64,000 nt of DNA from a virus: IMG/VR virus record IMGVR_UViG_3300032053_000041, positions 12,229 to 76,228 of that record; one strand, written 5' to 3'. This document shows, one piece after another, positions 6,477-57,002 of this stretch (position 1 is its first letter; every line of letters begins with the position of its first letter). The notes under the pieces are model-generated. The model was given only the letters and a program-made list of their open reading frames with translations, was not told the DNA's origin and searched no databases. The position numbers were made by a program, and so were the translations under genes.

Positions 6477-6563
6477 ACCGAAGGTGAGCGGGACACGTTC
6501 AGCGGACTCCCGCTCGGCAATGAAGCACGGATGCACGGCAGACCACGCGGAACGGAGCATGTG

Positions 6564-6935: not shown

Positions 6936-6987
6936 AGCATCCCCGAATCAGAAACCGTGCTCAGCGGAGCACGAGAGAGGCAATCCG

Positions 6988-7424: not shown

Positions 7425-7482
7425 GGAGCAACCGTGAAGCAACGTGTGTCGGAAACTACCCCAACAAGAAAGAGGCGATTCG

Positions 7483-7809
7483 TTGACCAAGAATCCGTTG
7501 TCGAAGCTCTACGGTGAGTGCCTCGTTGATCGAGCCGGCTCCCTTGAGGCTCGGGGGAAGGATCTTTTGATGAGTGAAGTTCGTGAGCGGGCGTTCGCGG
7601 AGTTCCTACGCCGCCATAACGATACGCTCGTAGCACTGGTGGCGACGCTCCCGAAGTGCGCTCGGGGCTGTCGCCGTCTGGCTACCACGACGGACGGTGA
7701 CGGGACGTACCACTGCGATCCTCATCGACCGCCGCGTGAACTTACGGTCAGCGTGGACCTGCCGTGGGCGAAGCTAGTTCGGGAAGAAAAGATTCCGGTG
7801 CAACCGTGA
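7483..7809 (+). CDS. cassette 6 cargo, Cys/His-containing hypothetical
   Basis: start uncertain (TTG 7483 or ATG 7569); stops in site 7806. Confidence 0.45.
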   Translation: MTKNPLSKLYGECLVDRAGSLEARGKDLLMSEVRERAFAEFLRRHNDTLVALVATLPKCARGCRRLATTTDGDGTYHCDPHRPPRELTVSVDLPWAKLVREEKIPVQP

Positions 7810-7928
7810 AGCATCTTGCAGACTGGATTCTTGACCAAGCCTCGCTGCTCGTGCCGTGCCTGTTCGCCGGGGCGTTCGTCGCTCTGATAGGTGGCGAGGT
7901 GTACGACCGAATCAGGGAGCAACCGTGA
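7806..7928 (+). CDS. cassette 7, 40-aa membrane peptide
   Basis: MKHLADWILDQASLLVPCLFAGAFVALIGGEVYDRIREQP, runs site-to-site. Confidence 0.45.
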   Translation: MKHLADWILDQASLLVPCLFAGAFVALIGGEVYDRIREQP

Positions 7929-7980
7929 AGCAGCAGGTACCGGCTGTCCGCAACGACCCCGACACGAAGGAGACAATCCG

Positions 7981-8148
7981 ATGAACCAGAAAACGAAGAA
8001 GTGCCGCGAAGAGCACCCGATCCTCTGCATCGACCCGGCGGGCGAGATTCCTCTTCGGTGCGGACTCCCGAAGGGCCACGGGGGGCTGCACGAGGACGAG
8101 CGAGAAACGGATGGCGCGAAGCCAGAGAAGACGGAGCCCGCGCCGTGA
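7981..8148 (+). CDS. cassette 8 cargo, small C/H-rich protein
   Basis: RBS GGAG, CGLPKGHGGLH motif, stops in site 8145. Confidence 0.45.
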   Translation: MNQKTKKCREEHPILCIDPAGEIPLRCGLPKGHGGLHEDERETDGAKPEKTEPAP

Positions 8149-8327
8149 AGCATCCTCGCCCCACCATCTCGGAACCCGCAGTTCTGAACTACGTGGTCTT
8201 TCACGCCGCCGATTGCCGCCGACTGCTCGACAAGTGGTGCCCGTGCGGCTGCGGAGCCGAGCAGCGAGCGCGAGACGCTCTCTATCGAGCGGTGGACGGA
8301 TGCTCAGACACTAGGAGACAACCATGA
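8145..8327 (+). CDS. cassette 9, small Cys-rich protein
   Basis: MKH start in site 8145, HxxxC...CPCGC, stops in site 8324. Confidence 0.45.
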   Translation: MKHPRPTISEPAVLNYVVFHAADCRRLLDKWCPCGCGAEQRARDALYRAVDGCSDTRRQP

Positions 8328-8527
8328 AGCAACCGAAGATACTGATTGAGGTACACTCAGATCCGCGAACCTGTCTCTGCGGATGGGTCCGACCGGTGCG
8401 AGCCGGGTTCGCAAAAGACGAGATGGGAAACGAACCGATCGAGGTTCCAGAGACACGGTTCTATTTTCTCTATGACTGCCCGCAGTGCGGCGCTCGGTGG
8501 AACATGCTTCTGGAACGGGTGGATTAG
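8324..8527 (+). CDS. cassette 10, small Zn-ribbon protein (copy 2)
   Basis: paralog of 7221..7424 with 3 aa differences. Confidence 0.6.
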   Translation: MKQPKILIEVHSDPRTCLCGWVRPVRAGFAKDEMGNEPIEVPETRFYFLYDCPQCGARWNMLLERVD

Positions 8528-8536
8528 GCGGCACCC

Positions 8537-8746
8537 GTGAAGCAGCATGACCAACCGAAGCCGCTCGTGCACTGGTGCGTGTTCAACGACGGGGAGCCGG
8601 TGTGCGGGGCGAAGATGCCGGAGCCGCCGACGAGAAAGCCGTTCTCGTGGCCCGACCACTACCCGCGGGTGGCGACGTCTCAGAAATATGTGACGTGCGA
8701 AGCCTGCAAGGAGCACTGCGCCGGTCCGAACAAGGCGAACCGGTGA
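8537..8746 (+). CDS. small Cys-rich protein after the last site
   Basis: MKQ start in site 8537; H..C, CG, CxxC. Confidence 0.5.
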   Translation: MKQHDQPKPLVHWCVFNDGEPVCGAKMPEPPTRKPFSWPDHYPRVATSQKYVTCEACKEHCAGPNKANR

Positions 8747-8764
8747 GCAAGAAGGAAGAGGAAC

Positions 8765-8968
8765 ATGAAGTTCAGTGAAGTGATCGCGGCGCTGGAGGAC
8801 GGGAAGAAGGTCAGGCAGTCCGGCATCGAGGGAGACTACTACCAGTTGGTCTCGCCGGGTCAGGGACTGAATCGCCAGTTGGTGTACGTGTATCAAGACG
8901 GCAGCTGGGAGAACGCGGAACTCAGATTCAGCGGTCACATGCGCAACGACTGGTCGGTGGTCGAGTGA
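8765..8968 (+). CDS. small phage protein, possibly DUF2829-like
   Basis: MKFSEVIAALEDGKKVR...NDWSVVE pattern. Confidence 0.45.
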   Translation: MKFSEVIAALEDGKKVRQSGIEGDYYQLVSPGQGLNRQLVYVYQDGSWENAELRFSGHMRNDWSVVE

Positions 8969-9243
8969 CGCACAAGGCGTGGAACGTGGTCGTCATCGAA
9001 ACGGAGCCGGAGACGGCGTGCGCGCGGTGCAAGAACAAGAAGGAGTGCCGCGACGTACTCGGTGATGGCACGAAGCTGTGCTTCAGCTGCGCAACGTCGG
9101 CTGAGAAGGAAGCGTACGGACGTCGGATGTTCGGGTCGCCTTCCACCGGCTTGCGCGAGACAGCCGACCGTCTCTTCGATGGCCTGAATGACAAGGAGAA
9201 GGAACTCGTCAAACGTAGGTTCGCCAAGAGGGAGGGGAAGTAG
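8965..9243 (+). CDS. small Zn-finger protein
   Basis: CxxC...CxxC. Confidence 0.55.
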   Translation: MTHKAWNVVVIETEPETACARCKNKKECRDVLGDGTKLCFSCATSAEKEAYGRRMFGSPSTGLRETADRLFDGLNDKEKELVKRRFAKREGK

Positions 9244-10044
9244 ATGAGCAGCACCGGTCGCGGCAGCGAGCGCGAGGAGAACGACGTCTACCTGACGCGC
9301 TACCCGCTCGCGCTCGCGATCTGCGAGAAGCTGAAGGCCGACGGCGTCATCGTCGCGCCGAGCGTGATGATGGAGCCGAGCGCGGGGGGAGGCTCCTTCG
9401 TCAGTGCGATGGCCGAGACATGGGCCCCGCGAACGCTGTACTGCAACGACCTCAACAGCGGTCTGATCTTGCCGGAGCACGAGGACCGTGCCCGGTTCTG
9501 CATCGAGCGCGCCCACCTGGGCCGTCACGAGAGCCACGGCAAGCTGATCTCGCTGGAGGGCGACTTCCTGCAGATCGAGCAGCGGAATGTGCCTGGGATC
9601 CAGGCCATCGTGGGCAATCCGCCATTCACCTTCGCGGAGCAGCATGTCCGTCATGCGATCTCGCTGCTTGCCCCTGGTGGAGCGCTCGCCTTCCTCCTTC
9701 CTGTGAACTTCCTCTCGGGCATCAAGCGTGTCGGCGGGCTCTATCGGGAGCACCCGCCCGAGTACGTGTACGTGATCGACAAGCGCCCGCAGTTCGTGGA
9801 CGGCTACCGGATCAACAAGCACGGCAAGCGCGTGAAGAAGGGGACCGACTCGAACGAGTACGGCGTCTTCGTGTGGAGGAAAGAGCGCCCCGAATTTGAA
9901 CCAGTGATCCGGTGGCTTCAGTGGTCGAAGTACTTGCAGAGGTTCAAGAACAAAGTCGAGAGGGTCGAGATCCAGGTAGGACAGAACGTGGACACGGACG
10001 ACGAGGACGTGGCAGGCTCCGCGACCGCAGGAGAGACAGAATGA
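9244..10044 (+). CDS. DNA amino-methyltransferase (N6-adenine type)
   Basis: motif I EPSAGGG, motif IV GNPPF. Confidence 0.85.
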   Translation: MSSTGRGSEREENDVYLTRYPLALAICEKLKADGVIVAPSVMMEPSAGGGSFVSAMAETWAPRTLYCNDLNSGLILPEHEDRARFCIERAHLGRHESHGKLISLEGDFLQIEQRNVPGIQAIVGNPPFTFAEQHVRHAISLLAPGGALAFLLPVNFLSGIKRVGGLYREHPPEYVYVIDKRPQFVDGYRINKHGKRVKKGTDSNEYGVFVWRKERPEFEPVIRWLQWSKYLQRFKNKVERVEIQVGQNVDTDDEDVAGSATAGETE

Positions 10045-10883
10045 ACCGACGACTTATCGCGTTGCTGCTTTCGCTCACGCTCGTTCTCGGAATACATGCC
10101 GCCGCCGCTGACCAGCGGAGTGGTCTGGAGCGCTGGCTATTCGCGACGGCGAACAAGCTGGAGCACTCATCGGCTCCAGGCGAAACGCGAGAGGACTACG
10201 AACGGCGGCTCGGTGGCATGTCCGCCGCGCTCGCTCGCGCCACGAAGCCCTACGCGAACGGGCAGGGCTGGACGACGACCGAGCTAGGACTCGCGATGCT
10301 GACGCTGTGGCACGCGGAGACGTTGTTTGATCAGCGTGTCCACGCTGGTATGCAGCACCCGAAGTGGACCCAGGACAAGGGGCGCGCCCGGTGCCTTGGT
10401 CAGATCCACGTCTCGCTCCTTGTGCCGCAGTCGGAATGGGAGAAGCTGGTCGGAACGGACGAGGGAGCGACGCAGATGTGCGCAGATGCAACGGCCCGGA
10501 TCTGGGTTGCGCAGGCCCGGCAGTGCGGCGTCTGGTACGGTCAGCGAGCCGATCGGAACAAGGTAGCGAAGGTCTTCGCGGCCTACGCGAGCGGCGGCAA
10601 CTGCCGCCCCGGAGAGCGCGACTGGGCGCGAGCAGACAAGTGGTTGGCCGGCATCGCGCAGCGACCGGATCGGAGCCCGGTGAAGGGCTATCGCCGGGCG
10701 GCCCCTGCCGAGATCCCGTCGAATGTGAAGGAGGACGCTCGAACGCTTGCGACCGAACTCGCTCCTCCCGGTGGCCACAAAGTCGGCGCGCAGTTTCCCG
10801 TGTGGGGCTCGTTTCTGTTGCTTGTCGAGAAGCACGCCGAGGGCAAACTCGGAGTTTCCGTTCTGATGAAGGAGAGCACGTAA
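10041..10883 (+). CDS. secreted lysozyme-like/SLT-like protein
   Basis: N-terminal signal peptide; HAET (catalytic Glu position), CLGQI (GLMQ-like), AAYASG (AYNAG-like). Confidence 0.5.
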   Translation: MNRRLIALLLSLTLVLGIHAAAADQRSGLERWLFATANKLEHSSAPGETREDYERRLGGMSAALARATKPYANGQGWTTTELGLAMLTLWHAETLFDQRVHAGMQHPKWTQDKGRARCLGQIHVSLLVPQSEWEKLVGTDEGATQMCADATARIWVAQARQCGVWYGQRADRNKVAKVFAAYASGGNCRPGERDWARADKWLAGIAQRPDRSPVKGYRRAAPAEIPSNVKEDARTLATELAPPGGHKVGAQFPVWGSFLLLVEKHAEGKLGVSVLMKEST

Positions 10884-11089
10884 TGTCACCCGAGAAGGCC
10901 GCGAAGAGGCACCCGCACTGCGGCGTGGAAGGGCACGGACCGGCACATCGGTTCGACGCGATCGACTGCTACGCCTGTATGGAGTGCGACGAGTGGCTCG
11001 AAGAGAAGTGCACCGAACCGGACTGTGCCTTCTGCAAGCAGCGCCCGGCTCGCCCGCCAGCGCCCGGCGCGGCCTCGTCACCTCCGTGA
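10883..11089 (+). CDS. small Cys-rich protein
   Basis: CxxC, CxxxxCxxC. Confidence 0.45.
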   Translation: MSPEKAAKRHPHCGVEGHGPAHRFDAIDCYACMECDEWLEEKCTEPDCAFCKQRPARPPAPGAASSPP

Positions 11090-16897: not shown

Positions 16898-17502
16898 CCG
16901 TTCGTGACAAGACCGGGACATCTGGCCGCGGCACGCCGCGCGTGCCGCCGGCCGGCGGTGGCGGTCCGCCTGGGCCGCAGGGGCCGCAGGGACCGCAGGG
17001 AGACGTCGGGCCGCAGGGACCGCAGGGAGACGTCGGGCCGCAGGGACCGCAGGGAGACGTCGGGCCGCAGGGACCGCAGGGAGACGTCGGGCCGCAGGGA
17101 CCGCAGGGACCGCAGGGAGCCTCGAACGGGTTTATCTTCTGGGGCGCTGGCACCCTCGCTCTCACCGCGGTGACACGCTTCCTGCGTCCCGGCTACCAGA
17201 GCGGGCTCGCTCCGACGACCAGCGTTCGCATGCCCATCACGCGAGCGGGCACGCTGCAACGGTTGTTCGTTCGCTGCCGCGTCGCTGGAGCGGGAGTGAA
17301 CAACATCACCTACACCGTGCTCCTGAACGGAGTGGCCACTACGCTTGCCGTGTCAATGCTGCCGACTGCCGTGTCCGCGTCGAACGTCGTGAACACGGTA
17401 GCCGTGGCTGCTGGAGACTTCGTCGAGCTTCAAGTCACGAAGGCCGGCGTCATCGTCACGACTCCGACAGACGTCGAAGTCGCCTTTGAGGAGGCCGCCT
17501 AA
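16894..17502 (+). CDS. collagen-like fibre protein
   Basis: (GPQ/GDV)n triple-helix repeat plus beta C-domain. Confidence 0.8.
16972..17118 (+). repeat. 27-bp tandem repeat x4 (GGGCCGCAGGGACCGCAGGGAGACGTC) plus partial units
   Basis: read directly; encodes collagen. Confidence 0.9.
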
Positions 17503-18560
17503 TGGGAACGCATCGCTTTCAGCTGGACAGCATCAACGCGACCGAGGTCGGCAACCTCTCCGAGCCGGGACTCGTGGCGACATCGCTTGCTGCGCGTCCG
17601 CAGATCGACGTCACGCTCGCGAACGATGCGTTCCTGCCGGATCTGACAGAGGCGATGGCTCAGTTCGGGTACTCGTTCGTCGCGAGCGCTCCGACGACGC
17701 CTCGTGCGACGTCGAACCTGCTCGTGGACATGAGCGACCCAGGCGCGACCACCACGGTCGCTCCGGCTGGCACGATGCGAGCACGATACGACAACACGCA
17801 GAAGGCGCTCGTCATGTCCGTGGACGGCGGAGCGTACTTCCCGCTCGGGGTGAACCCCCCGAACGGGGCGAGCTTCTTCGAGGACTTCCTTTCGTCCAAC
17901 GGCACCGTGTTCGGGAACACGAACTGGATCAGCGTCATCAGCGGTACCGGTTCCGCCGTTACTGTGGGCCCCGGAGTCGCCCCAGCGGTGATCGACGGGG
18001 CCCACCAAGGAATACTACTACTGAACACTGGCACTACCGCCACTGGTCGTGCCGCCGCGAGGCAAGCCGCTGCGGCTGCGCCGTGCTACTCCAACGTCGC
18101 CGCAGCCGGCGGAAACACCCGGATAGAGTTTCTCGTGTCGCGGGTTGATGCACTGTCCGACGGTGTTAATAACTACGCGACCATGTTCGGGTGGTCCGAC
18201 GCTGCCACTACCGGGTTCGGGGCCAACTGTGCGCTGCTGTGCCACGATCCGGCAACCAGTCTGACCAACTGGGTAGTCAAGACTCTCGGTGGTGGATCGC
18301 CTGTCACGGCGGCTACGGCAATCCCCATCTCGGCCGCTGGAGCATGGGACAAGCTCACGATCGACATCTCGGCATCTCTCGGGGTGAGGTACTTTGTGAA
18401 CGGGGTGCTCGCCGCGACGCATGCTCTCACGGCCGCTCCGCCCTCCGCCGCTACTCCGTGGACTCCAATCGCCAAGATCGAGAAGTCATTGGCCCTCCTC
18501 GCCCGCCGCGTGGCCGTTGATTATTCCTCCTGGAGCTTCAGACTTTCAGCTGCGAGGTGA
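17502..18560 (+). CDS. putative fibre/receptor-binding protein, lectin-like C-domain
   Basis: FFEDF...W...VRYFVNGVL...VDY pattern (ConA-like, inferred). Confidence 0.5.
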   Translation: MGTHRFQLDSINATEVGNLSEPGLVATSLAARPQIDVTLANDAFLPDLTEAMAQFGYSFVASAPTTPRATSNLLVDMSDPGATTTVAPAGTMRARYDNTQKALVMSVDGGAYFPLGVNPPNGASFFEDFLSSNGTVFGNTNWISVISGTGSAVTVGPGVAPAVIDGAHQGILLLNTGTTATGRAAARQAAAAAPCYSNVAAAGGNTRIEFLVSRVDALSDGVNNYATMFGWSDAATTGFGANCALLCHDPATSLTNWVVKTLGGGSPVTAATAIPISAAGAWDKLTIDISASLGVRYFVNGVLAATHALTAAPPSAATPWTPIAKIEKSLALLARRVAVDYSSWSFRLSAAR

Positions 18561-22671: not shown

Positions 22672-23121
22672 ATGGCGACGACGAGGGGGAACGCCCAAGA
22701 TGCGAGGTACTACGTGTGGGAGATGTCTGTTCGCGACCGGAAGCAGCCGCTCCGTCAGGTGAACAAGTCGCCGCTCTTGCTGGAGAAGGCGAAGCAGCTG
22801 GCTCGCATCGGCGCGCAGAAGGGAAAGCACGATCGCGCGGTGACGACGAGCCCGACGTCGCCGAAGGGCTTCCGGATCGTGGCGCAGTACGCGGCCGGGG
22901 CCGGCAAGGACGTCGCCATCATGTACCGACGCGGCTCGGGCGGCGGCACGCGGCGCAAGAAGGTCGCTCGGGAGAACGCTTCCTCGGAGGACAGCGCGCC
23001 GGATCCGGTGAGAGGCGTCACACTGACCGAGGAGGAGTTCGTCGTTCAGGAAGCCGTACCCAGCGAACCCGAGGAGCCGGAAACCGAATCGCACCGACAT
23101 GTGTCGGCTGACGAGGTGTAG
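22672..23121 (+). CDS. hypothetical basic/acidic protein
   Basis: 149-aa ORF within the operon. Confidence 0.5.
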   Translation: MATTRGNAQDARYYVWEMSVRDRKQPLRQVNKSPLLLEKAKQLARIGAQKGKHDRAVTTSPTSPKGFRIVAQYAAGAGKDVAIMYRRGSGGGTRRKKVARENASSEDSAPDPVRGVTLTEEEFVVQEAVPSEPEEPETESHRHVSADEV

Positions 23122-23124
23122 CTC

Positions 23125-23634
23125 GTGACGAAGGGCCTCACGCCCTGGATGGAGCAGAAGGTCGCCGACCTTCTCGCGTACGGCAGAAGCATCGGCATCG
23201 AGGCTCGCGTCTCCGAGGGCTTCAGGACGTGCGCCAGGCAGAACGCCATCTACGCGGGCGGGAGCAGCACCGCGACGGGCGTGAGTGGATGCCATTCCTG
23301 GCACGTCTGGGGCCGCGCCGCGGACCTGCTCATCGACGGCGGTACCCGCGCCGACTACGCAGCCCTGGCGGCCGAATGGAAGCGCTGGGGCGGGATTTGG
23401 GGCGGGGACTGGACCTCCCCCGCGGACGACTGGGGTCACTTCGAGTGGCACCCGGACATCCCGGACATCCACGACCTGTGCCCCCGCGGCGCGGGCGCGG
23501 AGGCATGTCCTGACCCGAACGAGCCCTGGCCCGAAGACCGGCCTCTGTGGGCGCGTCCGGGGGTCAGGCTCCTCGGAGGAGCCCTCCTGGCGGCCGGCGG
23601 CATGTACCTGGCATATTCCCTCGTGAGACGGTAG
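23125..23634 (+). CDS. M15-family peptidoglycan peptidase with C-terminal TM
   Basis: EGFRT..RQ, SWH..GRAAD, WGGDW, DWGHFE. Confidence 0.85.
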   Translation: MTKGLTPWMEQKVADLLAYGRSIGIEARVSEGFRTCARQNAIYAGGSSTATGVSGCHSWHVWGRAADLLIDGGTRADYAALAAEWKRWGGIWGGDWTSPADDWGHFEWHPDIPDIHDLCPRGAGAEACPDPNEPWPEDRPLWARPGVRLLGGALLAAGGMYLAYSLVRR

Positions 23635-23721
23635 GCTCCTGGGGTTCCCGCCGCGCCTCTGCCGGTGGGGAGTCTCGTCACATGCCCGCGCCTCGGCCGG
23701 GAGGAAAAGGAAGCCACAGCC

Positions 23722-24165
23722 ATGTTCATCCCGTCAACCACGCTCGTAGACACTGAAACGAACCGTTACGACTACCTCCAGGCCACCGAGGCGTCCGTCA
23801 TGGAGGACTTGTTCACAAAGTACATCGCAGCGCTGGACGCTGCGAACAATGTACCGAGCAATCCGCAGCTGGGCATCCTCGACGTCGACATCGCGGGCGG
23901 CGGCGACGGCCACACGTTCGTGCTTCGCATTCTGGTGTCGGAGGCCGTGAGCATGGCTGGCTGGTCGGTCGCCCAACTGCCGAATGTGAACGGCAGATTC
24001 TGGATGGGCTCCGATGCGGAAGCGTTGGAGGCGTACCAGGAGGCGGCGATTGCCTCGCTGCTCGCGATCACCGGAGTGGCAACCAATGTCGCTGTCGGCA
24101 CCGCTGGCGCAGCGAAGGGCACGCGCTTCATGGCGTTCATCGCCGCTGTCTCGCCCCCCCAGTGA
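23722..24165 (+). CDS. GGGDGHTF/KGTRF family protein
   Basis: shared motifs. Confidence 0.65.
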   Translation: MFIPSTTLVDTETNRYDYLQATEASVMEDLFTKYIAALDAANNVPSNPQLGILDVDIAGGGDGHTFVLRILVSEAVSMAGWSVAQLPNVNGRFWMGSDAEALEAYQEAAIASLLAITGVATNVAVGTAGAAKGTRFMAFIAAVSPPQ

Positions 24166-37285: not shown

Positions 37286-37798
37286 CTAGAGCCAGTCGAG
37301 GTTGGTGAGCACTGACGGGCCGTCAAGCGGCGCCGTCGGCATGTGTACGGGCCTTCCGAGCATGGCATGGCGGTACGTCTCCCTGTCGCATCGAGCGATC
37401 TTCGCGTCCGGGTGTTCCGGCTCCCCTGCGGGGATGAATAGCAGCGCTCGCGCGGCCGGGATGTTCCACATGCGGTCAATGGCCTGGAAATCGTGCCCTC
37501 CGTCCATGTACGCGGCGCGCATTACGAAGCCGGTGTTGATGTCGCGGAGCCAGTCGCCCTGGTAGATGTCGGTGCGATTGACGCCGACCCCGAGATAGAC
37601 GCCCGCGGCCGGGCTCGAACGCACCACCACACGTCGCTTGGCCGTCGCTAGGTAGCGTTCCAGGTGCTTGCACGACTTCGGTGACGCCTTGCTGAACTTC
37701 CAGCCGGTGCAATCACAGTACGGCGTGCCGTCACGAGCTTCGATGATGCGATGCTCGCTGCCGTTCGAGCCGGGGACCGTCGCTAGAACCGTGGTCAC
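37286..37798 (-). CDS. SWIM zinc-finger protein
   Basis: CDC...CKH. Confidence 0.7.
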   Translation of the reverse strand: MTTVLATVPGSNGSEHRIIEARDGTPYCDCTGWKFSKASPKSCKHLERYLATAKRRVVVRSSPAAGVYLGVGVNRTDIYQGDWLRDINTGFVMRAAYMDGGHDFQAIDRMWNIPAARALLFIPAGEPEHPDAKIARCDRETYRHAMLGRPVHMPTAPLDGPSVLTNLDWL

Positions 37799-38970
37799 AG
37801 TACGGATCCCACGAACTTCTTCGCCCCGTCAACGGACGTCATGTCCGCGTCGGTCAGGTGGATGTACTCGGAGGCGCGATCCTTGAGGTCACCGTAGAAC
37901 GGCGTGTCGATTGCGATGCTCCACAGGCGGGTTCCCGCTTTACGCATCTCTTCGAGCGCTTCCCCGACACGTGACCCGCCGTCGCCGCCGTCCGAGACGA
38001 GCACGACGTCTGCGCCACGGTGGCCCAGAGCAGCAAGGTTCGCAACCTCGTCCACGCCCACCATGAGAGCGCGGCCAATGTCCGTGCCTCCGTCGAGGAA
38101 TGTGTGCTGCGCTCGCACGACGCCCGCCTTGTCGCCAGGCTTCAGCACGACCGCTTTCGTCGCCGTGCTGAAGTGAACCACGACCACCGCGCGTTTCTCT
38201 TCCCACGCGATGCGGGTCAGAGCGGTCATCGCGGCCTTGGCCCACTCGTCGCGGCTGCCGTTCATGGAGCCCGACTCGTCGAGAGCAATCACGAGCGGTC
38301 CCCGCGACTTCTTGTCGCGACCGGCACGCTCAAACTGCAGCGCTCGGCGCTCGGCGATCTGGCCGAACAGGTGCCGCCGCGTCGGATCCGTGCCGAGCAT
38401 GGCATATTCCTGCGGAAGCAGGACGGCGACGTCGCCGCCCGTCTCCGTGCCGATCACCTCTTCGGGGATACCGGCGACACGCTGCGCTTTCGCGCCCTTT
38501 AGCGCCTGGTACATGCGCCCGGCCAGCATGGCGATCCGACGCATCTTCTCGGGATCGGGGCGCATCTCCTGCACCGCGCGGAGTATGAGCCACGAGCCAG
38601 AGCTATCGGCGCCGAGCCCGTGCTCGATGTGCCCGCCCTGGTCGGCGAGAGCGCGGAACCGCTCCCACCCGGCCTCGGCGATCTTCCGCGCTTCGTAGGG
38701 CGAGCGGGGGTAGCGCGGCGGCACGCCAGCGTCGGCATGTGCCTCGACGTGACACTGCAGAGCGAACGCCGCCGCGATGTCCTCGGTCGCGAGCAGCACC
38801 GCGTATTCCACCGGCATCGTGTCGGCCACGGCCAGCGTGACCATGGCGTCGCCAGTGGCGCCGAGCCCGGTGACTCCGGCATATATCTCGACGGCGAGCG
38901 GTTCGTTCGCGTCGGTGACGATTTCGGCGACCATCGAGTGCCGCCGCTTGGCTTGCTTGAATGTCAGCAT
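37795..38970 (-). CDS. VWA domain protein (ViaA-like)
   Basis: MIDAS DESGSM, GGTD, VSDG. Confidence 0.85.
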   Translation of the reverse strand: MLTFKQAKRRHSMVAEIVTDANEPLAVEIYAGVTGLGATGDAMVTLAVADTMPVEYAVLLATEDIAAAFALQCHVEAHADAGVPPRYPRSPYEARKIAEAGWERFRALADQGGHIEHGLGADSSGSWLILRAVQEMRPDPEKMRRIAMLAGRMYQALKGAKAQRVAGIPEEVIGTETGGDVAVLLPQEYAMLGTDPTRRHLFGQIAERRALQFERAGRDKKSRGPLVIALDESGSMNGSRDEWAKAAMTALTRIAWEEKRAVVVVHFSTATKAVVLKPGDKAGVVRAQHTFLDGGTDIGRALMVGVDEVANLAALGHRGADVVLVSDGGDGGSRVGEALEEMRKAGTRLWSIAIDTPFYGDLKDRASEYIHLTDADMTSVDGAKKFVGSVL

Positions 38971-39049
38971 GTGTCCGTGCCCTTCGTTGCGTTGCGTTGC
39001 GTTTGCAGTCCGCGCCCCGGCTCGAACCGGCGGCGCTTCGTACCCGTTG

Positions 39050-39132
39050 CGGGCTACTCGCTGGATCGTACCGTCGGCACATTCCAGCGAGTAGCCCGGT
39101 CACGGCGGCTGGGAAGCGCCCGCCGTGACCGG
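39050..39132. other. tandem long hairpins between AAA+ and VWA genes
   Basis: 16-bp perfect IR 39050-65/39083-98 and 13-bp IR 39096-108/39120-132. Confidence 0.75.
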
Positions 39133-39142
39133 GGAGAGAGTG

Positions 39143-40324
39143 TTACGGGCGGAGCCCGAGACTGCCGCTCGCTTTGCAGTCGTCATATGCCTGGCTCAGT
39201 TCGAGCAGGTAGCTCTTGGCGCGGTCCTTGACCCGTTGCGGCACCTTGCCGCCGAACCGCGCCTTAATGTCGCGGCCCCCTGCTTCCATCTGGTCGCAGA
39301 GTGCGGACGCTCGCTCGTTGAAGTCCGACTGTCCCTTCGCGGCGTGGTAGGCGTCGAGCAGCCGTTCCACAATCGTGCGAATCTCGCCGATCATGCCCTT
39401 GTTGACGGTGCCGATCGCCGTCTCGACGGCGGGCCTGTCGTCCGGCCGCCGCCAGAGCACATTCCGCAAAAAGTCCACGTGGTCGAGTTCGACCGTGGCC
39501 GACCCGTCGAGCCAGGCGAACGCTTGCAGGATCTTGACGCACTTGAACATGCGCCGGTCGGACACGTAGATCCCGGCGCCTTTCAGTGCATCCTGCACAT
39601 TCAGCAGCGCCTCGAACACGAGCGGATCGAACACGAGGGTTCGGGCGGCGTCATGTGCCGCCGTAATCTCCGCGATGGAGACCGGCTGCAGCCGGATCGG
39701 CTGGCGAGGCACGGCAGCAGCCTCGACGAAAGCGAGCCTCGCGGCCCGCTTCGCAATCGGCTCGACCCAGAACCGGACGAGCAGGCGGTCTTCGAGCGCA
39801 GCCACGCTCTCGTCCTCGCCGAACTCGTTCGAGGCGCCGACGAACGTAATGAGCGGGGACACATAGCCGCCCCGCACGTTCCGCTCATTGAGCCAGCCGA
39901 GCAGCGAGTTGAGAAACCCGCCGCTCGCCTTGAAGCACTCGTCACCGAAAGCGAAGTGCGCCTCAGTGATCTTGCCGTCCGTCTTGTAGACGTAGGCGCC
40001 GTTCGTGAACGCCTGGACGTCCAGGAACGCGAGGTGATCCGCCTCGGTGGACTGGCGGGTGAACAGATCCTCCCGGTACGTGCCGGTGAACTGCGACGCC
40101 CACGTCCGCACCAAGTCAGACTTGGCCGTGCCGGGGGGGCCGACGAGCACGCCGTGCTCTTGCGAGGTGGCGCAGACGTCCAGCGCAACCAAGATGTCGG
40201 CTCGCTCGTGGAACACGGCGGCGATCACCTTGCGGTTGGCGAGCAGACGTCGGCGGACGTCCGCCAGGTCGATGGCGGGGGGCTCGGTGTCGTGAATCAT
40301 GTGCATGGCGCTTCCCAGGGTCAT
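39143..40324 (-). CDS. MoxR/RavA-family AAA+ ATPase
   Basis: GPPGTAKS, FGDECFKA, GASN, ALEDR. Confidence 0.85.
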   Translation of the reverse strand: MTLGSAMHMIHDTEPPAIDLADVRRRLLANRKVIAAVFHERADILVALDVCATSQEHGVLVGPPGTAKSDLVRTWASQFTGTYREDLFTRQSTEADHLAFLDVQAFTNGAYVYKTDGKITEAHFAFGDECFKASGGFLNSLLGWLNERNVRGGYVSPLITFVGASNEFGEDESVAALEDRLLVRFWVEPIAKRAARLAFVEAAAVPRQPIRLQPVSIAEITAAHDAARTLVFDPLVFEALLNVQDALKGAGIYVSDRRMFKCVKILQAFAWLDGSATVELDHVDFLRNVLWRRPDDRPAVETAIGTVNKGMIGEIRTIVERLLDAYHAAKGQSDFNERASALCDQMEAGGRDIKARFGGKVPQRVKDRAKSYLLELSQAYDDCKASGSLGLRP

Positions 40325-40357: not shown

Positions 40358-40771
40358 CTACTTGACCGGGAACAGGGGTACGGCGACGCTCGCCGCTGAG
40401 ATCAATCGGGTCACGGCGACGATTCGGCCGTCCGTGTCTCGGATGGCGCCGTCGGCGGGGCCTGTGCCGGGTGACACGACGTCGCGCCGGTCGACTCGTC
40501 CCGCCACAAGGCCCGACACGATGTAGACCGTGCTTGCATGTGGCGGCGGGAGCCCTTCCACGTCGCCCCACTCGGGGGATCCGTAGATCGGCACGGGGCC
40601 GGTGTCGTCCACAAGCACGCCGGGGGTGCTTGCAACGCGGCACACGGTGCCGTTCGGGGGGATCGTGACGTCGATCCCGTTGCGGCGCAGCACGACGGGG
40701 TGCGGCGTCAGGTTCACCAGGGTACGGCCCTGGCTGGTGGCGGCGGGGTGGAGTGAAGCGGGGTGAGTCAT
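40358..40771 (-). CDS. phage protein of NLTPH type
   Basis: LVNLTPH...YIVS.LV...R.DV..P. Confidence 0.65.
   Translation of the reverse strand: MTHPASLHPAATSQGRTLVNLTPHPVVLRRNGIDVTIPPNGTVCRVASTPGVLVDDTGPVPIYGSPEWGDVEGLPPPHASTVYIVSGLVAGRVDRRDVVSPGTGPADGAIRDTDGRIVAVTRLISAASVAVPLFPVK
40359..40379 (-). promoter_or_regulatory. 21-bp phage promoter-like motif
   Basis: ACCCCTGTTCCCGGTCAAGTA upstream of AAA+ gene. Confidence 0.6.
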
Positions 40772-40776
40772 GGCCC

Positions 40777-40797
40777 TACTTGGCCAGGAACAGGGGT
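40777..40797 (-). promoter_or_regulatory. 21-bp phage promoter-like motif
   Basis: ACCCCTGTTCCTGGCCAAGTA, 5 nt from ATG. Confidence 0.65.
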
Positions 40798-40912
40798 CAT
40801 CGTTTGGCTCGGTTTTGGTCTACGTTACGATAAACGCGGCATTGGGTAACGATAGGACCGGTATCGGTACGATAACTACACTTATGTTAACGTCAGCAGA
40901 ACGGCCCCGGCG

Positions 40913-40933
40913 ACCCCTGTTCCTAGCCAAGTA
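40913..40933 (+). promoter_or_regulatory. 21-bp phage promoter-like motif
   Basis: ACCCCTGTTCCTAGCCAAGTA, 4 nt from ATG. Confidence 0.65.
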
Positions 40934-40937
40934 GGGC

Positions 40938-51622: not shown

Positions 51623-52216
51623 ATGACCGTGCGGAGACTGCCCATCGCCGCCATCCTGGGAGCATGTGCCCTGGCCTGCGGAGGGAGCGAGTTCAGCGGG
51701 GGCGCCGACCTGCATGACCTGGCTGACTCCGGCTCAGGATCCGCAGGCACATATTCTCAGGACGGAGGTGGGACAGGCGGTGTCACACCTGCGTCCGGCT
51801 CCGGCGGGACACATGCCGCAGCGGGCGGCGCGGGCCGGGCAGTCACCGGTGGTCATTCCGCTGTGGGCGGAACCGTGAACGAGTCAGGGGGCAGTCCCGC
51901 GGCAGGCGGCGGGGTAGGTACCGGTGGGTCCGTGGGGCACGCCGACGGCGGCGCACCTCCGGCTTCTGGTGGTTCTAGTGGCTCTGGTGGAGCCCTGGCG
52001 ACTGGTGGGGCTCCGGCCGCCACGGGGGGCGCCGGAGGCGCCGGGGGCCAGGAACCGGCCTGGCTGCACGCCTGCGGGCCATCGATCACGTGCCAAGACC
52101 CCGTCACATGCCCGCTGGGGGGAGTGTGTTGCATCGGTCCGGACCCTGGGTACTACACCGGGTGCGGATGTCTGGTGCTGAATCCGTTACCTGGAGCGGC
52201 CACCGTCTGCCGCTAG
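51623..52216 (+). CDS. Gly/Ser-rich lipoprotein with Cys-rich C-terminus
   Basis: lipobox LAC-G, GGxGG linker, multiple Cys. Confidence 0.65.
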   Translation: MTVRRLPIAAILGACALACGGSEFSGGADLHDLADSGSGSAGTYSQDGGGTGGVTPASGSGGTHAAAGGAGRAVTGGHSAVGGTVNESGGSPAAGGGVGTGGSVGHADGGAPPASGGSSGSGGALATGGAPAATGGAGGAGGQEPAWLHACGPSITCQDPVTCPLGGVCCIGPDPGYYTGCGCLVLNPLPGAATVCR

Positions 52217-52644
52217 GGCAGCGCTCTCAAGTACGCCTGGAAGGCCCGGTTGGAGAGCGCTTGGACGCCCAGATCGTCCGTGCGGCGGCTTCGGACCAGG
52301 GCCAGGATCTCCTCCCCGGAATCTCCCCCGGTCAGGTAGAGGGCCAGCGCGGCGACCAGAGCCGATCGGTTCCGCCCCATCCGGCATGTGACGAGAACAC
52401 GCCTACCCGCGCGCAGGTCGCGCGCCACCGCCTGAGCGGCTGCCCAGGCAGTCGCCAGGTCGCGGTCGGTGGGCCGGGACGAGTCGTCGAAGGGGAAGTG
52501 CCGGACCCGGACTCCAGGGAACATGTCTGCGGCGGGCTGGTACTCGTCGGCCGTGAACACGATCACGTCGATCTGGCCGACATAGTCCCCAGGCGAGGGA
52601 GCCGACCCGACCCACAGGCTTTTGGCTATTCGACTGGCGGACAC
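52213..52644 (-). CDS. dual-specificity protein phosphatase
   Basis: CX5R loop TCRMGRNRS, acid loop PFDD. Confidence 0.85.
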   Translation of the reverse strand: MSASRIAKSLWVGSAPSPGDYVGQIDVIVFTADEYQPAADMFPGVRVRHFPFDDSSRPTDRDLATAWAAAQAVARDLRAGRRVLVTCRMGRNRSALVAALALYLTGGDSGEEILALVRSRRTDDLGVQALSNRAFQAYLRALP

Positions 52645-52703
52645 GTCCGCAAGCTACCCGAACCCGGCTAGAAACGGAACGCCGAACAGTTTAGGGTAAC
52701 GGT

Positions 52704-55700
52704 ATGCCGAGGCCGAACCGACCGGAACTGGCCGTGCTCCGGGGCAAGACCGGCCCCGAGTCGCTGACTCAGTGGACCGAGGCGTTCGCGGGCGGCGATC
52801 CCGACACGGCTGGGCGGTACGCCGCTGTGATCGCGCGCTTCACCGGAAGGCCCGAGCCTGGCGCGACCTACGAGCCGTACATGGGTGTGTACTCGCCCGC
52901 AACGCGGCGCGCGTACGCCTACGCGCTGACCGAGTTCTTCGAGTGGATCGCCTCGAAGTACGGACGGATCATCCCGCCGCCGCAGGTCACCCGCAAGGAC
53001 GCGGAGGACTATGTCCAGTGGCTCACGGCGCGGCCGTACACGCTCGAAGGCGAGCGCCTCCGCGATGGCGACCAACAGGAGCGCCTGGCGCTGTACGAGA
53101 TCGTGCGCGATCTCGGTTCGGCAGACGTGCTCAGCATCGCGGCGAAGATCCCTCCGTGGCTAGCCGCGGCACATTCCTCGCGCTCGGACACGACCAAGAT
53201 CGATCGCGTGTGGCTCACCAAGGAGCTTGGTCGGATGGTCCTACACGATCTGCTCGTGCGGTCGCCGACGATAGATGAGCTTCGTCGCGAGGACGCGCGC
53301 ATCGGGATCAGCGTCTTCACCGTGCTGCTGCCGATCAACGGACGGGTACGCGAGATGCCGCTCGACGAGGTTTTTTCGTACACGTTGCCCAAACCGCGCG
53401 CCGTGTCCCGAGGGACGGTCTCCGTGCGCCTCGCGGCGCTCACGTCTTTCTGGAATGTGCTGGCGACCGGCGAGAACATGGCCGGGCAGGGCGCGCTGCT
53501 CCAGTACAACGTCTTCGCCGATCTCGCTGGGCGCGTGCGCAAAGGCATGGCCGCCGAGAGCAAGGTGGCCGCCTCGCGACGCGGGAGACTCACGCCACAG
53601 ATGGTCGAGCGGCTTCTGCAGGCCGTGGACGGCCCGTCGCTCGCGGAGAAGCGCGACGCCGCGCTGCTCTGGTTCCTGGTCCTGACAGGCGCGCGGCTCA
53701 CCGAGGCTACTCGCGTGCGACGCGACCGACCGCCCGCCGCAGAGGCGCAGCGGTGGCCAGGCTGGTACGACGGCCGCGCGAACCCGCCGACCGTCGAACT
53801 GGTGCGCAAGGGAGGCCATCGGCAGCGGCTTCCGTATCCGCCCTACGCGCTCAAGGCGCTCAACTCCTTCCAGTCGGAGCTTTCCAAGCATGTGCCGCTC
53901 GCGGGCACACAGAGCGAGGATCCCGCCTCGCAGCACTACCTGCAGCCGACGTCGCCAGCATGGCGCTACAAGATGCTCGCCGAGGAGCCGGACGCGCCAC
54001 TGTTCCCGTCGGTGAACTTCTGGGGGGCCAACTCGACGCACAACTACCAGGAGTTCAAACCGAACGCGAACGTGCGCCCCGACTACAGGCGCGCGATGAC
54101 GCGGCACGGAGTCGACGCGATGCTGAAGCGCGTCGCGAAGAAAGCCGGTTTCAGCAACGAGGAGACAGCGCTGGTACACGGTCACGCCTTCCGTCACTTC
54201 GCCGCGACGGCGATGGCGAAGCAGGGCAAGCCGCTGCGCGAGATCCAGCACATTCTGGGACACGGCTCAGTCACCACCACCGAGCGCTATGTCGAGGCCG
54301 AAACACGTCCCGAGGCGCTCTCCGGACAGAACGAGATTCTCGACTACATCTCGACTGGGGTCGTGCGCGAGCCCCCGGCACCTGCGGAGCCAGAGCCACC
54401 GAGGCAGCCTCCGGTACGTGCGCCACGCCCGGTGGTCGAGACGTACGGCGTACCCGCGCCCCCGGCGGAACGACCGCGGGCTCCAAAGCCCAAGCGGGAG
54501 AGAGTGGCGGCGCTACCGCCGGAGGAGAAGGTGCTACCGGCACAGTCCCCGCAGGTGAACCCCGAGGCCGTCGTGCCCATCAACGACCGCCTGGTGGCGC
54601 TGGTCCCAGAAGGTCCCATGCCCCCGCCTGGCTCCGAGATTCGCGGGAACATATCGCCGCCGTCGCCATGGTGGGGCTACGCGGGCAGAGGACCGCTGAA
54701 GCCCGGTCAGTCTCAGGAGGACCGTGCCGCCTGGCAGGAGAAGATCGAGTTCACGTTTGCCGAGCGCAGAACGAAAAGAGGCAAGCAGGGCGCGACCTTG
54801 TACACGAAAGATGGCGGCGTGGAGATGGTGCAAGGGAACGGGTGGCTCGCCAAGCACTACGACCCGTGGCCCATCAACTACGGGCTCGGCTCAAGTTCGC
54901 TGTTGCCGTGGTTCGCTCGTGGCACCGCAACCGCCAACGGCGAGGTGAAGGCCGACGTCAGACGGACGAAGCTCGACCCACCGAATATCGTTGTGGTGCC
55001 GCCTATTCCCGTGCTCTCGCTGCAGCAGATGGACCCATCGGTGATGCAGACGCACTCGAAGCTGCTCTGGCAGAAGGTCGACGGGATGCGTACGCGATGG
55101 CTGACGACTTCGCCGTCGCGCGCCTTCGGGCTCGACCGCTGGTGGGGAGCCTTCCTGAAGATTCAGGTCGGCTTACTGAATGGCACACAGCAGAAGTTCC
55201 GTTGGCAGCCGTTCGGGGCTCAAGCGATTCTCGGAGAGGAGATCCATTCACATGACGAGGAGTACATCGTCAAGTGGCTGGAAACCAACGCCGAGCGCTA
55301 CACGGCCACAGTACGTGCCTTCGAGGAGATCGCGCGTCTCGAAGGCAAGTCCGAGACCGAGCGGTCCGAGTGGATCCAGTTCCGCGAAACATGGCGTGAC
55401 GCGGGCATCACCGACGTCAGCCCGGCACAGACCCTCCCGGACTGGTTCATCGTGGATGACCCGATTCACGATATCTACGAAAACGACCCGGAGGAGTGGG
55501 AGTGGTTCGCGAAGTGGCTCGGGGCCGTCACGGGGCAGAAGCTCACCCCGGAGCGCGAGGAGGCACTCAAGACCGAAGTGGCCATCACAGAGAACGATCA
55601 ATCGATCCGGATCCAGCAGGCGCGTCTGCTGTTGCAGACGTATTACGACACGGTGAGCGCGCTTCGTGGACTGAGTGGCGAGGCTCGCACCAGTGAGCGC

Positions 55701-57002
55701 GCCACGCTGAAGTTCCTGACGGATCAGCTACGCGACGAGTACGGCGTGCCCGACCCTGTGCAGATGCTCAAGGAGGGTAAGCTGAAGAAGCGTCAGCGGC
55801 GTGAGGCCAGCATCGAGCAGTTGCTCGCCATGGCCTTCCCGTCTGTGCCTGTCACGGAGGTCGATCCGAACATGCTCAAGAGCAGGATGTTCGACGCGGA
55901 CACGCTGCGCCTCGACATGACGAACAAGACCATCTCGCACACGCCGGAGTTCCGGAAGCACTTCGCTGAGTGGTACGACGGACGCGACTCCGAGTGCGTG
56001 GTGCGCCGCGCCGCCAGAGGTATGTGGGAGCACGTGAAGCGGCACGGGATCCCGATTGAGCGCGGAGGGGAGCGCTCGTCCGAGTACAGCCTGCTCTACT
56101 CCGTGATGCTCTCGTACATGGCGTGGATCTTCCCGTGCCCTGAAGAGATCGAGCGGCGCATGGCGGAGGAGGGTCTGGCTGGACAGGAAGCGAAGCTCAT
56201 CTGGCTGAACGGCGTTCGCAGCACGAGCCAGCGCATGATGATCTCTACACGTGACCAGGACGAGGACGCCTTGCGCGCGGTAGGTGCCGAAAACGGACTG
56301 GACCCCAAGAGCGCGGACGAGGTCATCGAAGCTGGCCTGGTCGTAGATTCAGTGCGCGCCGAGGTGGCTCTACCAAGCCAGGAGATCACGGATGCCGTGG
56401 CGCGAAGCGCGGTGAAGTCCGGACAGGTCGTCACGAGAGGCGGGACAGTGGTTGTTCGCCGGCCGAGCGCTCGTCAGCTGCTCGCTATGGATGAACCAAG
56501 ACAGGAGGAGCAGCCCGCAGCCGAGCCAGAGCCGGTTTTCTCCGCTCCAGTCGAGCCGACGGCACAGACCCCAGGAGTCCTGGCGTCGGGAAGGCCCACC
56601 GTGCTGCGTCGTCGCGCCGGTGAACGGCCGAAGCGGGCCCCGGAGACCGCTCGACGCTACGAGGAGAAGGAAGCGGAAGACTTGGAATTGCTTCAGCGAG
56701 GAGGTCCAGAGTGGTTCGCGACGGTGCGAGGGGATCAGCCCCAGGAGCGAGAGGAGGAAAGGGAGGGGATCGGCAGCTTGAGCGAGCAGGCCGATGAACA
56801 GTTGTACGGCGGCACGGACGGGGGCGAGCAGTCCGATGAGCAGTTCGCCGAGGGACTGGAGTTCAACCCGAGGCGTAAACCTGCTGGCGTCAGGTACATG
56901 ACGCTCGGCGCGTACATGGCCGGAGCCCAGTACGTCGCCAACGCGGAGAGCGTTCTTCCGAGCGCGATCCGCATGATGTCGGCGATGTCGCTGCCGTTCT
57001 AG
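52704..57002 (+). CDS. giant tyrosine recombinase/integrase (1432 aa)
   Basis: SAM-like 'SPATRRAY...EFFEW' and 'TVSVRLAALTSFW'; catalytic R (TGAR), K (RKGG), HAFRH, LGH, TTERY; ~900-aa C-terminal extension. Confidence 0.9.
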   Translation: MPRPNRPELAVLRGKTGPESLTQWTEAFAGGDPDTAGRYAAVIARFTGRPEPGATYEPYMGVYSPATRRAYAYALTEFFEWIASKYGRIIPPPQVTRKDAEDYVQWLTARPYTLEGERLRDGDQQERLALYEIVRDLGSADVLSIAAKIPPWLAAAHSSRSDTTKIDRVWLTKELGRMVLHDLLVRSPTIDELRREDARIGISVFTVLLPINGRVREMPLDEVFSYTLPKPRAVSRGTVSVRLAALTSFWNVLATGENMAGQGALLQYNVFADLAGRVRKGMAAESKVAASRRGRLTPQMVERLLQAVDGPSLAEKRDAALLWFLVLTGARLTEATRVRRDRPPAAEAQRWPGWYDGRANPPTVELVRKGGHRQRLPYPPYALKALNSFQSELSKHVPLAGTQSEDPASQHYLQPTSPAWRYKMLAEEPDAPLFPSVNFWGANSTHNYQEFKPNANVRPDYRRAMTRHGVDAMLKRVAKKAGFSNEETALVHGHAFRHFAATAMAKQGKPLREIQHILGHGSVTTTERYVEAETRPEALSGQNEILDYISTGVVREPPAPAEPEPPRQPPVRAPRPVVETYGVPAPPAERPRAPKPKRERVAALPPEEKVLPAQSPQVNPEAVVPINDRLVALVPEGPMPPPGSEIRGNISPPSPWWGYAGRGPLKPGQSQEDRAAWQEKIEFTFAERRTKRGKQGATLYTKDGGVEMVQGNGWLAKHYDPWPINYGLGSSSLLPWFARGTATANGEVKADVRRTKLDPPNIVVVPPIPVLSLQQMDPSVMQTHSKLLWQKVDGMRTRWLTTSPSRAFGLDRWWGAFLKIQVGLLNGTQQKFRWQPFGAQAILGEEIHSHDEEYIVKWLETNAERYTATVRAFEEIARLEGKSETERSEWIQFRETWRDAGITDVSPAQTLPDWFIVDDPIHDIYENDPEEWEWFAKWLGAVTGQKLTPEREEALKTEVAITENDQSIRIQQARLLLQTYYDTVSALRGLSGEARTSERATLKFLTDQLRDEYGVPDPVQMLKEGKLKKRQRREASIEQLLAMAFPSVPVTEVDPNMLKSRMFDADTLRLDMTNKTISHTPEFRKHFAEWYDGRDSECVVRRAARGMWEHVKRHGIPIERGGERSSEYSLLYSVMLSYMAWIFPCPEEIERRMAEEGLAGQEAKLIWLNGVRSTSQRMMISTRDQDEDALRAVGAENGLDPKSADEVIEAGLVVDSVRAEVALPSQEITDAVARSAVKSGQVVTRGGTVVVRRPSARQLLAMDEPRQEEQPAAEPEPVFSAPVEPTAQTPGVLASGRPTVLRRRAGERPKRAPETARRYEEKEAEDLELLQRGGPEWFATVRGDQPQEREEEREGIGSLSEQADEQLYGGTDGGEQSDEQFAEGLEFNPRRKPAGVRYMTLGAYMAGAQYVANAESVLPSAIRMMSAMSLPF

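Follow-up and report, generated by a model that had tools for sequence, protein, structure and literature searches.

Few DNA enzymes are understood as well as the tyrosine recombinases, which are widely employed as tools of genome engineering. Nearly all of them, to our knowledge, have 300-450 residues, and core sites such as loxP, FRT, rox and dif consist of inverted arms around an asymmetric spacer (11-6-11 in dif). The described systems closest to the one considered here are the dimer resolvases XerC, XerD, XerA and XerH and the Cre/loxP system of phage P1; further points of comparison are TnpI of Tn4430/Tn5401, which binds a core dyad and additional motifs in its internal resolution site and thereby also controls its own expression, and the integron integrase IntI with its attI/attC array. 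The subject of this analysis is a gene coding for a tyrosine recombinase of 1432 residues, located in a stretch of 64,000 nucleotides (the window) that corresponds to positions 12,229 to 76,228 of the IMG/VR virus record IMGVR_UViG_3300032053_000041. This source record is called G000, and its enzyme-carrying relatives in IMG/VR are called G001-G009. The protein is the founding member of a large family, so far uncharacterised, that occurs on virus-like elements of 110-140 kb; a literature search on giant or large tyrosine recombinases returned nothing relevant.

The gene product is, judging from its sequence, an intact and probably catalytically competent tyrosine recombinase of the Xer/Cre type, three to four times the usual size. 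Its reading frame is open throughout, and the GC content at third codon positions (GC3) is 0.82, typical of real genes in a sequence with 65% GC (gene calls were made with a simple GC3 filter and are approximate). A Pfam scan of the protein identified PF00589 (E 4.8e-17, 62.7 bits against a cut-off of 27.1), together with weak SAM-like N-terminal or core-binding matches at residues 63-111, and the best named matches in PHROGs were 'integrase' families covering residues 232-547. Profile alignment to XerA and XerD placed box I at residues 292-336 and box II at 461-530, and R331, K369, H494, R497, H520 and Y529 were invariant among 29 full-length homologues. The R-K-HxxR-H-Y set that a previous sequence-only reading of the window had placed in the first ~530 residues is therefore intact, with R, K, HxxR, H/W and the Tyr nucleophile in the order conserved in the tyrosine recombinase superfamily. 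The two-domain clamp fold was also recovered, in an AlphaFold2 (AF2) model of residues 1-560 with a predicted local distance difference test (pLDDT) value of 78.7; a Foldseek search with this model returned XerD, Cre, XerA, XerH, lambda Int and IntI4 at probability 1.0, the first four on top.

The two insertions and the large C-terminal extension announced by the same reading were confirmed as well. The core-binding domain is split by ~140 extra residues (the earlier estimate was ~130) in a hidden Markov model (HMM) alignment to XerA, in which residues 47-100 of XerA fall on profile positions 57-113 and residue 144 on position 298, these positions being close to the numbering of the recombinase itself. 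The second insertion lies between the catalytic Lys and HxxR, where K369 and H494 are 125 residues apart, ~53 more than in XerD when K172 and H244, which are 72 apart, are taken as its catalytic residues. The giant enzyme shares its domain plan and its catalytic set with the Xer resolvases, which are its best matches in sequence and fold, but the best NCBIfam models scored far under their cut-offs (XerA 72.8 against 220, XerC 66.6 against 335 and XerD 64.7 against 330), and with 65-73 bits against 220-335 it falls outside the XerA, XerC and XerD families. It differs from them also in its length (1432 residues against ~300), in the two large insertions and in the ~890-residue C-terminal extension, and in that it works alone on a mobile element, with no second Xer paralogue in most of the genomes.

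The extension begins, as had been described, with a Pro-rich linker followed by a Trp-rich region, and it contains two further parts that were missing from the earlier description, an acidic disordered stretch and a conserved tail of 45 residues (Table 1). Conservation in the C-terminal region equals that of the catalytic core, with Trp, Pro, Tyr and Arg residues invariant at dozens of positions, and the Trp-rich domain is recognised by the motifs HYDPWPxNYG, LLPWFARG, PPLPV..Q, TIxHTxEF, SECVxRRAARxMWE and PCPxxIE. The sequence-only reading had called the extension unknown and proposed structure prediction followed by Foldseek as a check. Modelling of residues 640-1432 gave a confident prediction for the first ~475 of them (a small beta-rich part, then long helices), and no structural relative was found with this model: Foldseek searches of PDB and BFVD and a search with VIA-align wide returned background or a generic helical hairpin only. 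Likewise, the extension gave no usable match in the ESM Atlas and nothing below E 0.05 in a PDB sequence profile search, and Pfam scans of the extension in ten family members revealed no recurrent family. For the fold of the module, as modelled, 'no match found' would be the appropriate label, one that stops short of 'new fold'.

The acidic stretch is much shorter in G001-G003 (homologues have 1251-1294 residues against 1432 here), and the disordered linker ahead of the tail differs by more than 150 residues among relatives. The consensus of the tail is (D/E)(D/E)LxxN...RYxT...Y(V/I)ANAE..LPSxLRMMAAMTLxF, of which the initial (D/E)(D/E)LxxN is nearly universal and Y(V/I)ANAE is often present. 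When it was sought in the other proteins of five genomes, it was found in the recombinase alone. A conserved tail on a disordered tether has, as far as can be read from sequence, the anatomy of a docking peptide. The tail may also mark a processing or targeting signal.

The Trp-rich domain is carried by 168 clusters at 50% identity, 154 of them at E <=1e-10, in a profile search against 1.84 billion cluster representatives. Nearly all of these proteins have 1100-1600 residues, with the domain beginning near residue 600-800, and the short cluster members, in which the domain runs from residue 1-2 of the match, look like fragments. PF00589 was N-terminal in the eight distant members sampled (8/8), and in the profile search the module was seen always fused to a recombinase and nowhere else. 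Because the 168 clusters are of near-constant size and all those sampled carry PF00589, the fusion is considered to be old and constant. Closer to the founding protein, the collection contains one identical protein (100%) and 31 full-length homologue clusters at 38-71% identity.

The family was not found in the better-known collections of mobile DNA: tblastn with the recombinase against INPHARED phages and PLSDB plasmids gave no match, and among 185,579 species genomes there were three matches, all on contigs of metagenome-assembled genomes (MAGs) of 2.8, 48 and 123 kb, the two larger ones (48 and 123 kb) being element-sized; host DNA was not looked for there. A single-sequence scan of IMG/VR gave no match either, whereas an alignment-based scan succeeded and identified nine related loci on IMG/VR contigs. 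Several of the contigs, 111-140 kb long and rated complete, end in direct repeats of 123-127 bp, which indicates that the relatives assemble as circles. The source record is shorter (76,228 bp) and is estimated to be 56% complete.

A screen for inverted 12-mers around 5-9 bp spacers in five genomes gave an unusually AT-rich dyad common to G002 and G003. The underlying motif, TTAT(G/C)(G/T)TAACG(T)C, occurs at two loci only per genome, the start of the recombinase gene and a divergent control centre located at the main strand switch. The pattern CGTTA[CA][CG][AG][TC]AA is restricted to the same two places in G001, G002 and G004, and a one-mismatch variant of the motif is present at the recombinase start in G000 and G003. 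The recombinase gene and the element's control centre share a specific DNA motif. At the gene it is a single half-site, found 2-4 nt before the start codon in G000, in G001-G006 and in MAG contig L064. At the control centre, which in the window precedes the gene by ~12 kb, it forms two dyads of 32-33 bp (13-6-13 or 13-7-13), 41-42 bp apart, and this pair occupies the same syntenic place in G001, G002, G003 and G007, while it is degenerate in G004 and G005.

Read from the outside in, the control centre is composed of a start codon, a 26-nt repeat, dyad 1, dyad 2, a 26-nt repeat and a start codon, a pseudo-palindromic arrangement conserved from G000 to G007, in which the outer ends of the repeats adjoin the two divergent start codons; possible roles of the region are those of operator, origin and recombination site. 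The motif of the 26-nt repeats is multi-copy and outward-facing, with further copies at 36829 (-) and 41546 (+), and since outward-facing copies flank the dyads, the dyads are not needed as early promoters. None of the dyad spacers CTACAC, CTGTGC and CGTCAC is palindromic. The enzyme of G007 is only 35% identical, and in this genome the arms are changed to ACGTT(T/G)CCATAA and both dyads are perfect 12-6-12 repeats; the half-site at the gene co-varies with these arms and is inverted. By analogy with loxP and the other core sites mentioned above, whose format 13-bp arms around a 6-7 bp spacer reproduce, the dyads qualify as credible candidate core sites, and an autoregulatory role is credible for the half-site at the gene.

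The preferred reading, which is put forward tentatively and at somewhat less than even confidence, is that the recombinase acts on the element's own DNA at these dyads, making or maintaining unit circles, and that it is autoregulated. The role of genome resolvase had been raised by the sequence-only reading as an alternative, and the results do not contradict it. The enzyme would work as Cre does at loxP, or as a multimer-resolution system does: crossover at one of the two dyads would yield unit circles from multimers that arise by replication or recombination, or from an entering genome with terminal redundancy. The half-site would overlap the gene's own promoter and start, so that the enzyme, or another protein binding the motif, would set the level of expression, and the C-terminal module with its tail would be an accessory for synapsis, direction control or docking to a partner or particle. 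The enzyme would not be dedicated to the array of small cassettes, with RTGAAGCA junctions, described below. The evidence on which this proposal draws is the catalytic set and fold, the old and constant fusion, the position of the enzyme as the sole PF00589 gene in complete relatives, the conserved synteny, the circular relatives, the presence of DnaB- and DnaC-like genes, the motif at two loci with its co-variation in G007, the core-site format of the dyads and the outward-facing repeat copies on either side of them.

Among the described systems, Cre/loxP resembles this arrangement in several respects: in both, one recombinase belongs to a large element whose DNA assembles as a circle, the arms of the dyad (here a candidate site) have 13 bp, and Cre is one of the top fold matches; the role proposed here, cyclisation and multimer resolution, is alike. 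The differences are that here two dyads are present, 9-15 kb from the gene and with spacers of 6-7 bp against 8 bp in loxP, that the enzyme is larger by a factor of four and that no plasmid-partition gene was found. The Xer systems are similar in that inverted arms around a 6-7 bp spacer resemble dif. TnpI offers a likeness by analogy for the combination of core site and autoregulation, although its site is directly upstream of its gene and it has no large extension.

Several observations weigh against the resolvase proposal. The dyads lie within a divergent promoter region and are paired four helical turns apart, an arrangement that is also classic for repressor operators; a TAnnnT hexamer is well placed within the half-site, which is possibly the mere promoter of a leaderless mRNA; the left dyad arms are degenerate in G004 and G005; a distance of 9-15 kb (29 kb in G007) separates the candidate site from the gene, and many recombinases adjoin their sites. 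A ParB-type partition gene, which would have supported a plasmid-like state, was not found in the complete relatives scanned.

The same layout is the basis of a second explanation, which we regard as unlikely, though it deserves serious weight: the protein would be a working recombinase with another target, and the TTATGGTAACG dyads and the half-site would serve a separate early regulator as operators and -10 elements, with the gene belonging to an immediate-early regulon. A pair of dyads within a divergent promoter region is a typical operator arrangement, and in 8 relatives TAnnnT stands at -12 to -7 (or -13 to -8) relative to the start codon, where a leaderless promoter would have it; in the window the fit is given by TAGGGT, within the half-site, at -12 to -7 of the A of the ATG. 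On the other hand, the four central half-sites at the control centre of G001 lose the TA of the hexamer and keep GGTA(A/G)CG, the half-site of G007 is inverted, which is tolerable for a binding site and intolerable for a promoter, and a dyad of 32-33 bp is long for a repressor operator.

The gene's surroundings bear on a third explanation. The order phosphatase, recombinase, convergent block is kept across relatives whose recombinases are 26-71% identical. The phosphatase-like gene is divergent from the recombinase, 59 bp away and always adjoining (syntenic in G001-G004); the convergent block on the 3' side is composed of four unknown genes, glycosyltransferases and GroES, and on the 5' side there is a same-strand block of 9-15 kb with small, poorly conserved genes. 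Conserved synteny of this kind is more in keeping with core maintenance than with an exchangeable lysogeny module. An integrase of lysogeny, inserting the element into a host chromosome at some attP, with the C-terminal module replacing the arm-binding and accessory-factor functions of the lambda type and the dyads serving only as operators or promoters, is accordingly rated as distinctly unlikely. Its appeal comes from the 'integrase' families among the PHROGs matches and from the fact that the giant enzyme is the only tyrosine recombinase in most relatives (it is the sole PF00589 gene in the complete G001, G002, G003 and G007), and the ordinary 318-aa integrase that accompanies the giant recombinase in G004 indicates that site-specific integration is not foreign to the clade. 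Apart from its deep conservation as a syntenic core gene, which is unlike typical lysogeny modules, this explanation is opposed by the lack of a candidate att site adjoining the gene, by the absence of tRNA genes in the window (neither a tRNA scan nor an Rfam scan gave a match), by the assembly of the relatives as free circles, and by the location of all three species-genome matches on MAG contigs, two of them element-sized, where host DNA was not looked for.

The combination of a tyrosine-recombinase fold with large extra domains is also characteristic of the protelomerases TelK and TelN, which raises the idea that the enzyme is a telomere resolvase making hairpin ends. This is disfavoured and seems very improbable, since the best matches are Xer and Cre, no telomere-resolvase family was matched in Pfam or NCBIfam, no long perfect palindrome with arms up to 200 nt apart was found in 40000-64000, the dyad spacers are asymmetric and the relatives assemble as circles rather than as hairpin-ended linear molecules.

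The sequence-only reading had proposed the recombinase as candidate enzyme for a cassette array located 44 kb away. The RTGAAGCA array is real (Table 1), and same-strand RTGAAGCA clusters are present in G001 (6 sites), G002 (8 + 3), G003 (5), G005 (5) and G006 (4); the nearest core lies 1.2-3.9 kb upstream of the recombinase start, on the same strand, in G001, G002, G003 and G006. Each junction is a conserved module of ~80 nt, in which GGTGAGCG is followed by GAAAAGACC, then by GGTGCAACC-GTGAAGCA and finally by conserved first codons, joining in this way the end of a gene, a ribosome-binding site, a stop/start overlap and the first codons of the next gene; ATG-type and GTG-type classes are distinguished. 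Around the 7-bp core, left flanks of junctions are reverse-complementary to right flanks of other junctions at 10/11 positions.

These arrays are the reason for considering an integron-like cassette enzyme, which would insert, excise and shuffle micro-cassettes at RTGAAGCA cores, a possibility that we consider improbable. Its confidence is kept above zero by the proximity in the four genomes and by the reverse-complementary flanks. Exact core-to-core events are also in its favour: cassette 9 of G000 is 98.4% identical to a cassette of G005 over 186/186 bp, with unrelated flanks and a background identity of 65-82% between the two genomes, and another cassette is duplicated inside G000 (95.5% identity over 220/220 bp). 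Moreover, the best full site is the most gene-proximal junction of G002, and contigs G005 and G006 break inside arrays.

Against this, enzyme and array are dissociated in both directions. The enzyme is present with no RTGAAGCA cluster found in G004 (96% complete), in G007 (complete) and in the fragments G008 and G009, and 8-mer counts after start codons revealed no array with another core in G004 or G007. Conversely, the 17-nt junction GGTGCAACCGTGAAGCA is present on 16 further IMG/VR contigs (loci L043-L061), 12 of which have 3-8 same-strand sites, and a relative of the giant recombinase was found on none of the 16 (0/16). Four of the array contigs without enzyme are rated complete: G016 and G018 contain only ordinary recombinases of 262-410 aa, and G021 and G022 have no PF00589 gene at all. 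Several of the 16 contigs hold recognisably the same cassettes, such as one starting GTGAAGCAgtgggtaacggctgtc in G002, L052 and L055. Many array contigs end inside arrays. The co-occurrence check proposed earlier therefore went against the link: arrays do lie near the gene in four relatives, but the enzyme occurs without arrays and arrays without the enzyme, the outcome set beforehand as refuting, and the proposed assignment is not supported.

Furthermore, no G000 junction carries both arms, and excision would consequently not regenerate a full site. Shuffling can be explained by homologous exchange at the ~80-nt module, as in the PeSL cassettes of T4-type phages, where short conserved regulatory modules flank small variable genes and mediate modular exchange with no need for a dedicated recombinase (PMC2839356, PMC4122927). 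This sufficiency, together with the two-way dissociation, is the reason for the low confidence. The PeSL cassettes are the closest analogue of the array, not of the enzyme, and differ in that the motif here overlaps stop and start codons and is common to unrelated elements. A second high-identity patch between G000 (17309-17673, window 5081-5445) and G005 (761-1125), 94% identical over 365 bp, lies inside an array cassette in G005 and upstream of the first core in G000; its ends fall off the cores, which indicates that mosaic exchange is not confined to cores and counts against a dedicated enzyme.

With IntI itself, the resemblance noted earlier stands in part. Both are tyrosine recombinases with an insertion in the same interval before HxxR, a similarity by position alone, and promoterless micro-cassette arrays with a short invariant core lie near the giant recombinase in four relatives; however, the integron integrase models failed (TIGR02249, 33.2 bits against a cut-off of 265; PRK15417, 21.4 against 435), the obligate association with an array is absent, arrays being widespread without the enzyme, and the junctions here are stop/start overlaps with conserved translation signals. 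The broader version of the idea, in which the enzyme, recombining at the RTGAAGCA cores that adjoin its gene in most of the clade, would be the engine of a phage-borne integron-like system whose cassette pool also fills unrelated co-infecting elements, in trans or by homology, and whose C-terminal module would provide capture and synapsis as attC folding does, is held to be just as improbable. L044 (G011) and L047 (G014) are contigs of ~43% GC in which a short GC-rich piece bearing genuine array junctions stands beside AT-rich DNA, and these pieces represent either chimeric assembly or cassette transfer into unrelated elements.

When ~45 neighbours were compared with PHROGs and Pfam, the only named ones were the dual-specificity-phosphatase-like protein, glycosyltransferases, GroES, a MoxR-VWA pair, an FkbM methyltransferase, an HD protein, DnaB and a DnaC-like protein. 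The DnaB/DnaC-like pair is, on homology, the element's own replication module. The MoxR-VWA pair belongs to the leftward early block beside the control centre, whose first gene is 40358-40771. In 5-6 complete relatives, no match was obtained with models for Terminase_6N, TerL_ATPase, Terminase_6C, Phage_portal, HK97 capsid and Phage_sheath_1, nor with those for FtsK_SpoIIIE, VirB4 and ParB_N, and the ten largest G001 proteins included no virion protein when compared with PHROGs. As all these hallmark scans of relatives were negative, the label 'virus' comes from IMG/VR; the elements are virus-like circular elements that may be viral or plasmid-like.

Two further observations concern single relatives. 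G001 contains at 22748-24160 (L012:2748-4160) a 470-aa transposase-like gene (PHROG 2262, E 2e-13), which indicates that insertion sequences invade these elements. In G007, the 16-bp palindrome TGCTAGCATGCTAGCA is present at five places (L065-L070; e.g. 5668, 9866, 27689, 84810 and 96088), with GG..CC flanks at two of them and one copy located after TTGACA; G007 also has four related single TGCTAGCA sites and one spaced pair, and the palindrome resembles a scattered operator or promoter motif that is peculiar to this genome.

Table 1. Features of the window (positions in the window unless another record is given; residues are those of the recombinase)
Feature	Position	Strand	Basis or remark
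DnaB-like helicase beside DnaC-like loader (L041)	G000 8627-10989, upstream of window		PHROG 19, E 6e-99; PHROG 50, E 7e-54
Array of 11 RTGAAGCA junctions	5726-8544	+	15 sites in window against 2.55 expected
MoxR-type AAA+ ATPase, then VWA-domain protein	37795-40324	-	bpMoxR, E 3.5e-36; leftward early block beside control centre
Divergent control centre	40773-40937	.	26-nt inverted repeats 40773-40798 and 40912-40937 flank the dyads
Two candidate dyads, CTACGTTACGATAA-8-TTGGGTAACGATAG and ATCGGTACGATAA-CTACAC-TTATGTTAACGTC	40820-40894	.	same half-site in each; dyad 1 at 40820-40855, dyad 2 at 40863-40894; core sites or operators
Dual-specificity-phosphatase-like gene	52213-52644	-	PHROG 10650, E 9e-10; Pfam DSPc, E 4e-5, below cut-off
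Half-site TTAGGGTAACG	52691-52701	+	ends 2 nt before ATG
Recombinase gene	52704-57002	+	1432 codons + stop
Residues 1-545, Xer/Cre-type tyrosine recombinase (predicted), core-binding + catalytic domain	52704-54338	+	PF00589, AF2 model, Foldseek
Residues 546-650, Pro-rich linker (25.7% Pro), poorly conserved	54339-54653	+	composition, alignment consensus
Residues 651-1170, conserved Trp-rich domain, ~520 aa, 4.2% Trp	54654-56213	+	no match in searches
Residues 1171-1384, acidic stretch, predicted disordered, length-variable	56214-56855	+	pLDDT <50, composition
Residues 1385-1432, conserved tail, ~45 aa	56856-56999	+	alignment of tail in 28 homologues

The recombinase gene is a handy marker for a clade of circular elements of 110-140 kb that are filed as viruses in IMG/VR and show none of the tested hallmarks of tailed phages, conjugation or partition. 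The candidate dyads of 32-33 bp, if confirmed as substrates, would constitute a new orthogonal site-specific recombination system. At least 168 clusters keep a folded module of ~520 residues, without detectable relative, on an intact Xer/Cre-like core, and purifying selection has kept this fusion through deep divergence. Since the fusion is maintained by selection, the module probably adds a function not described for this class of enzymes, which may be synapsis control, direction, partner docking or packaging.

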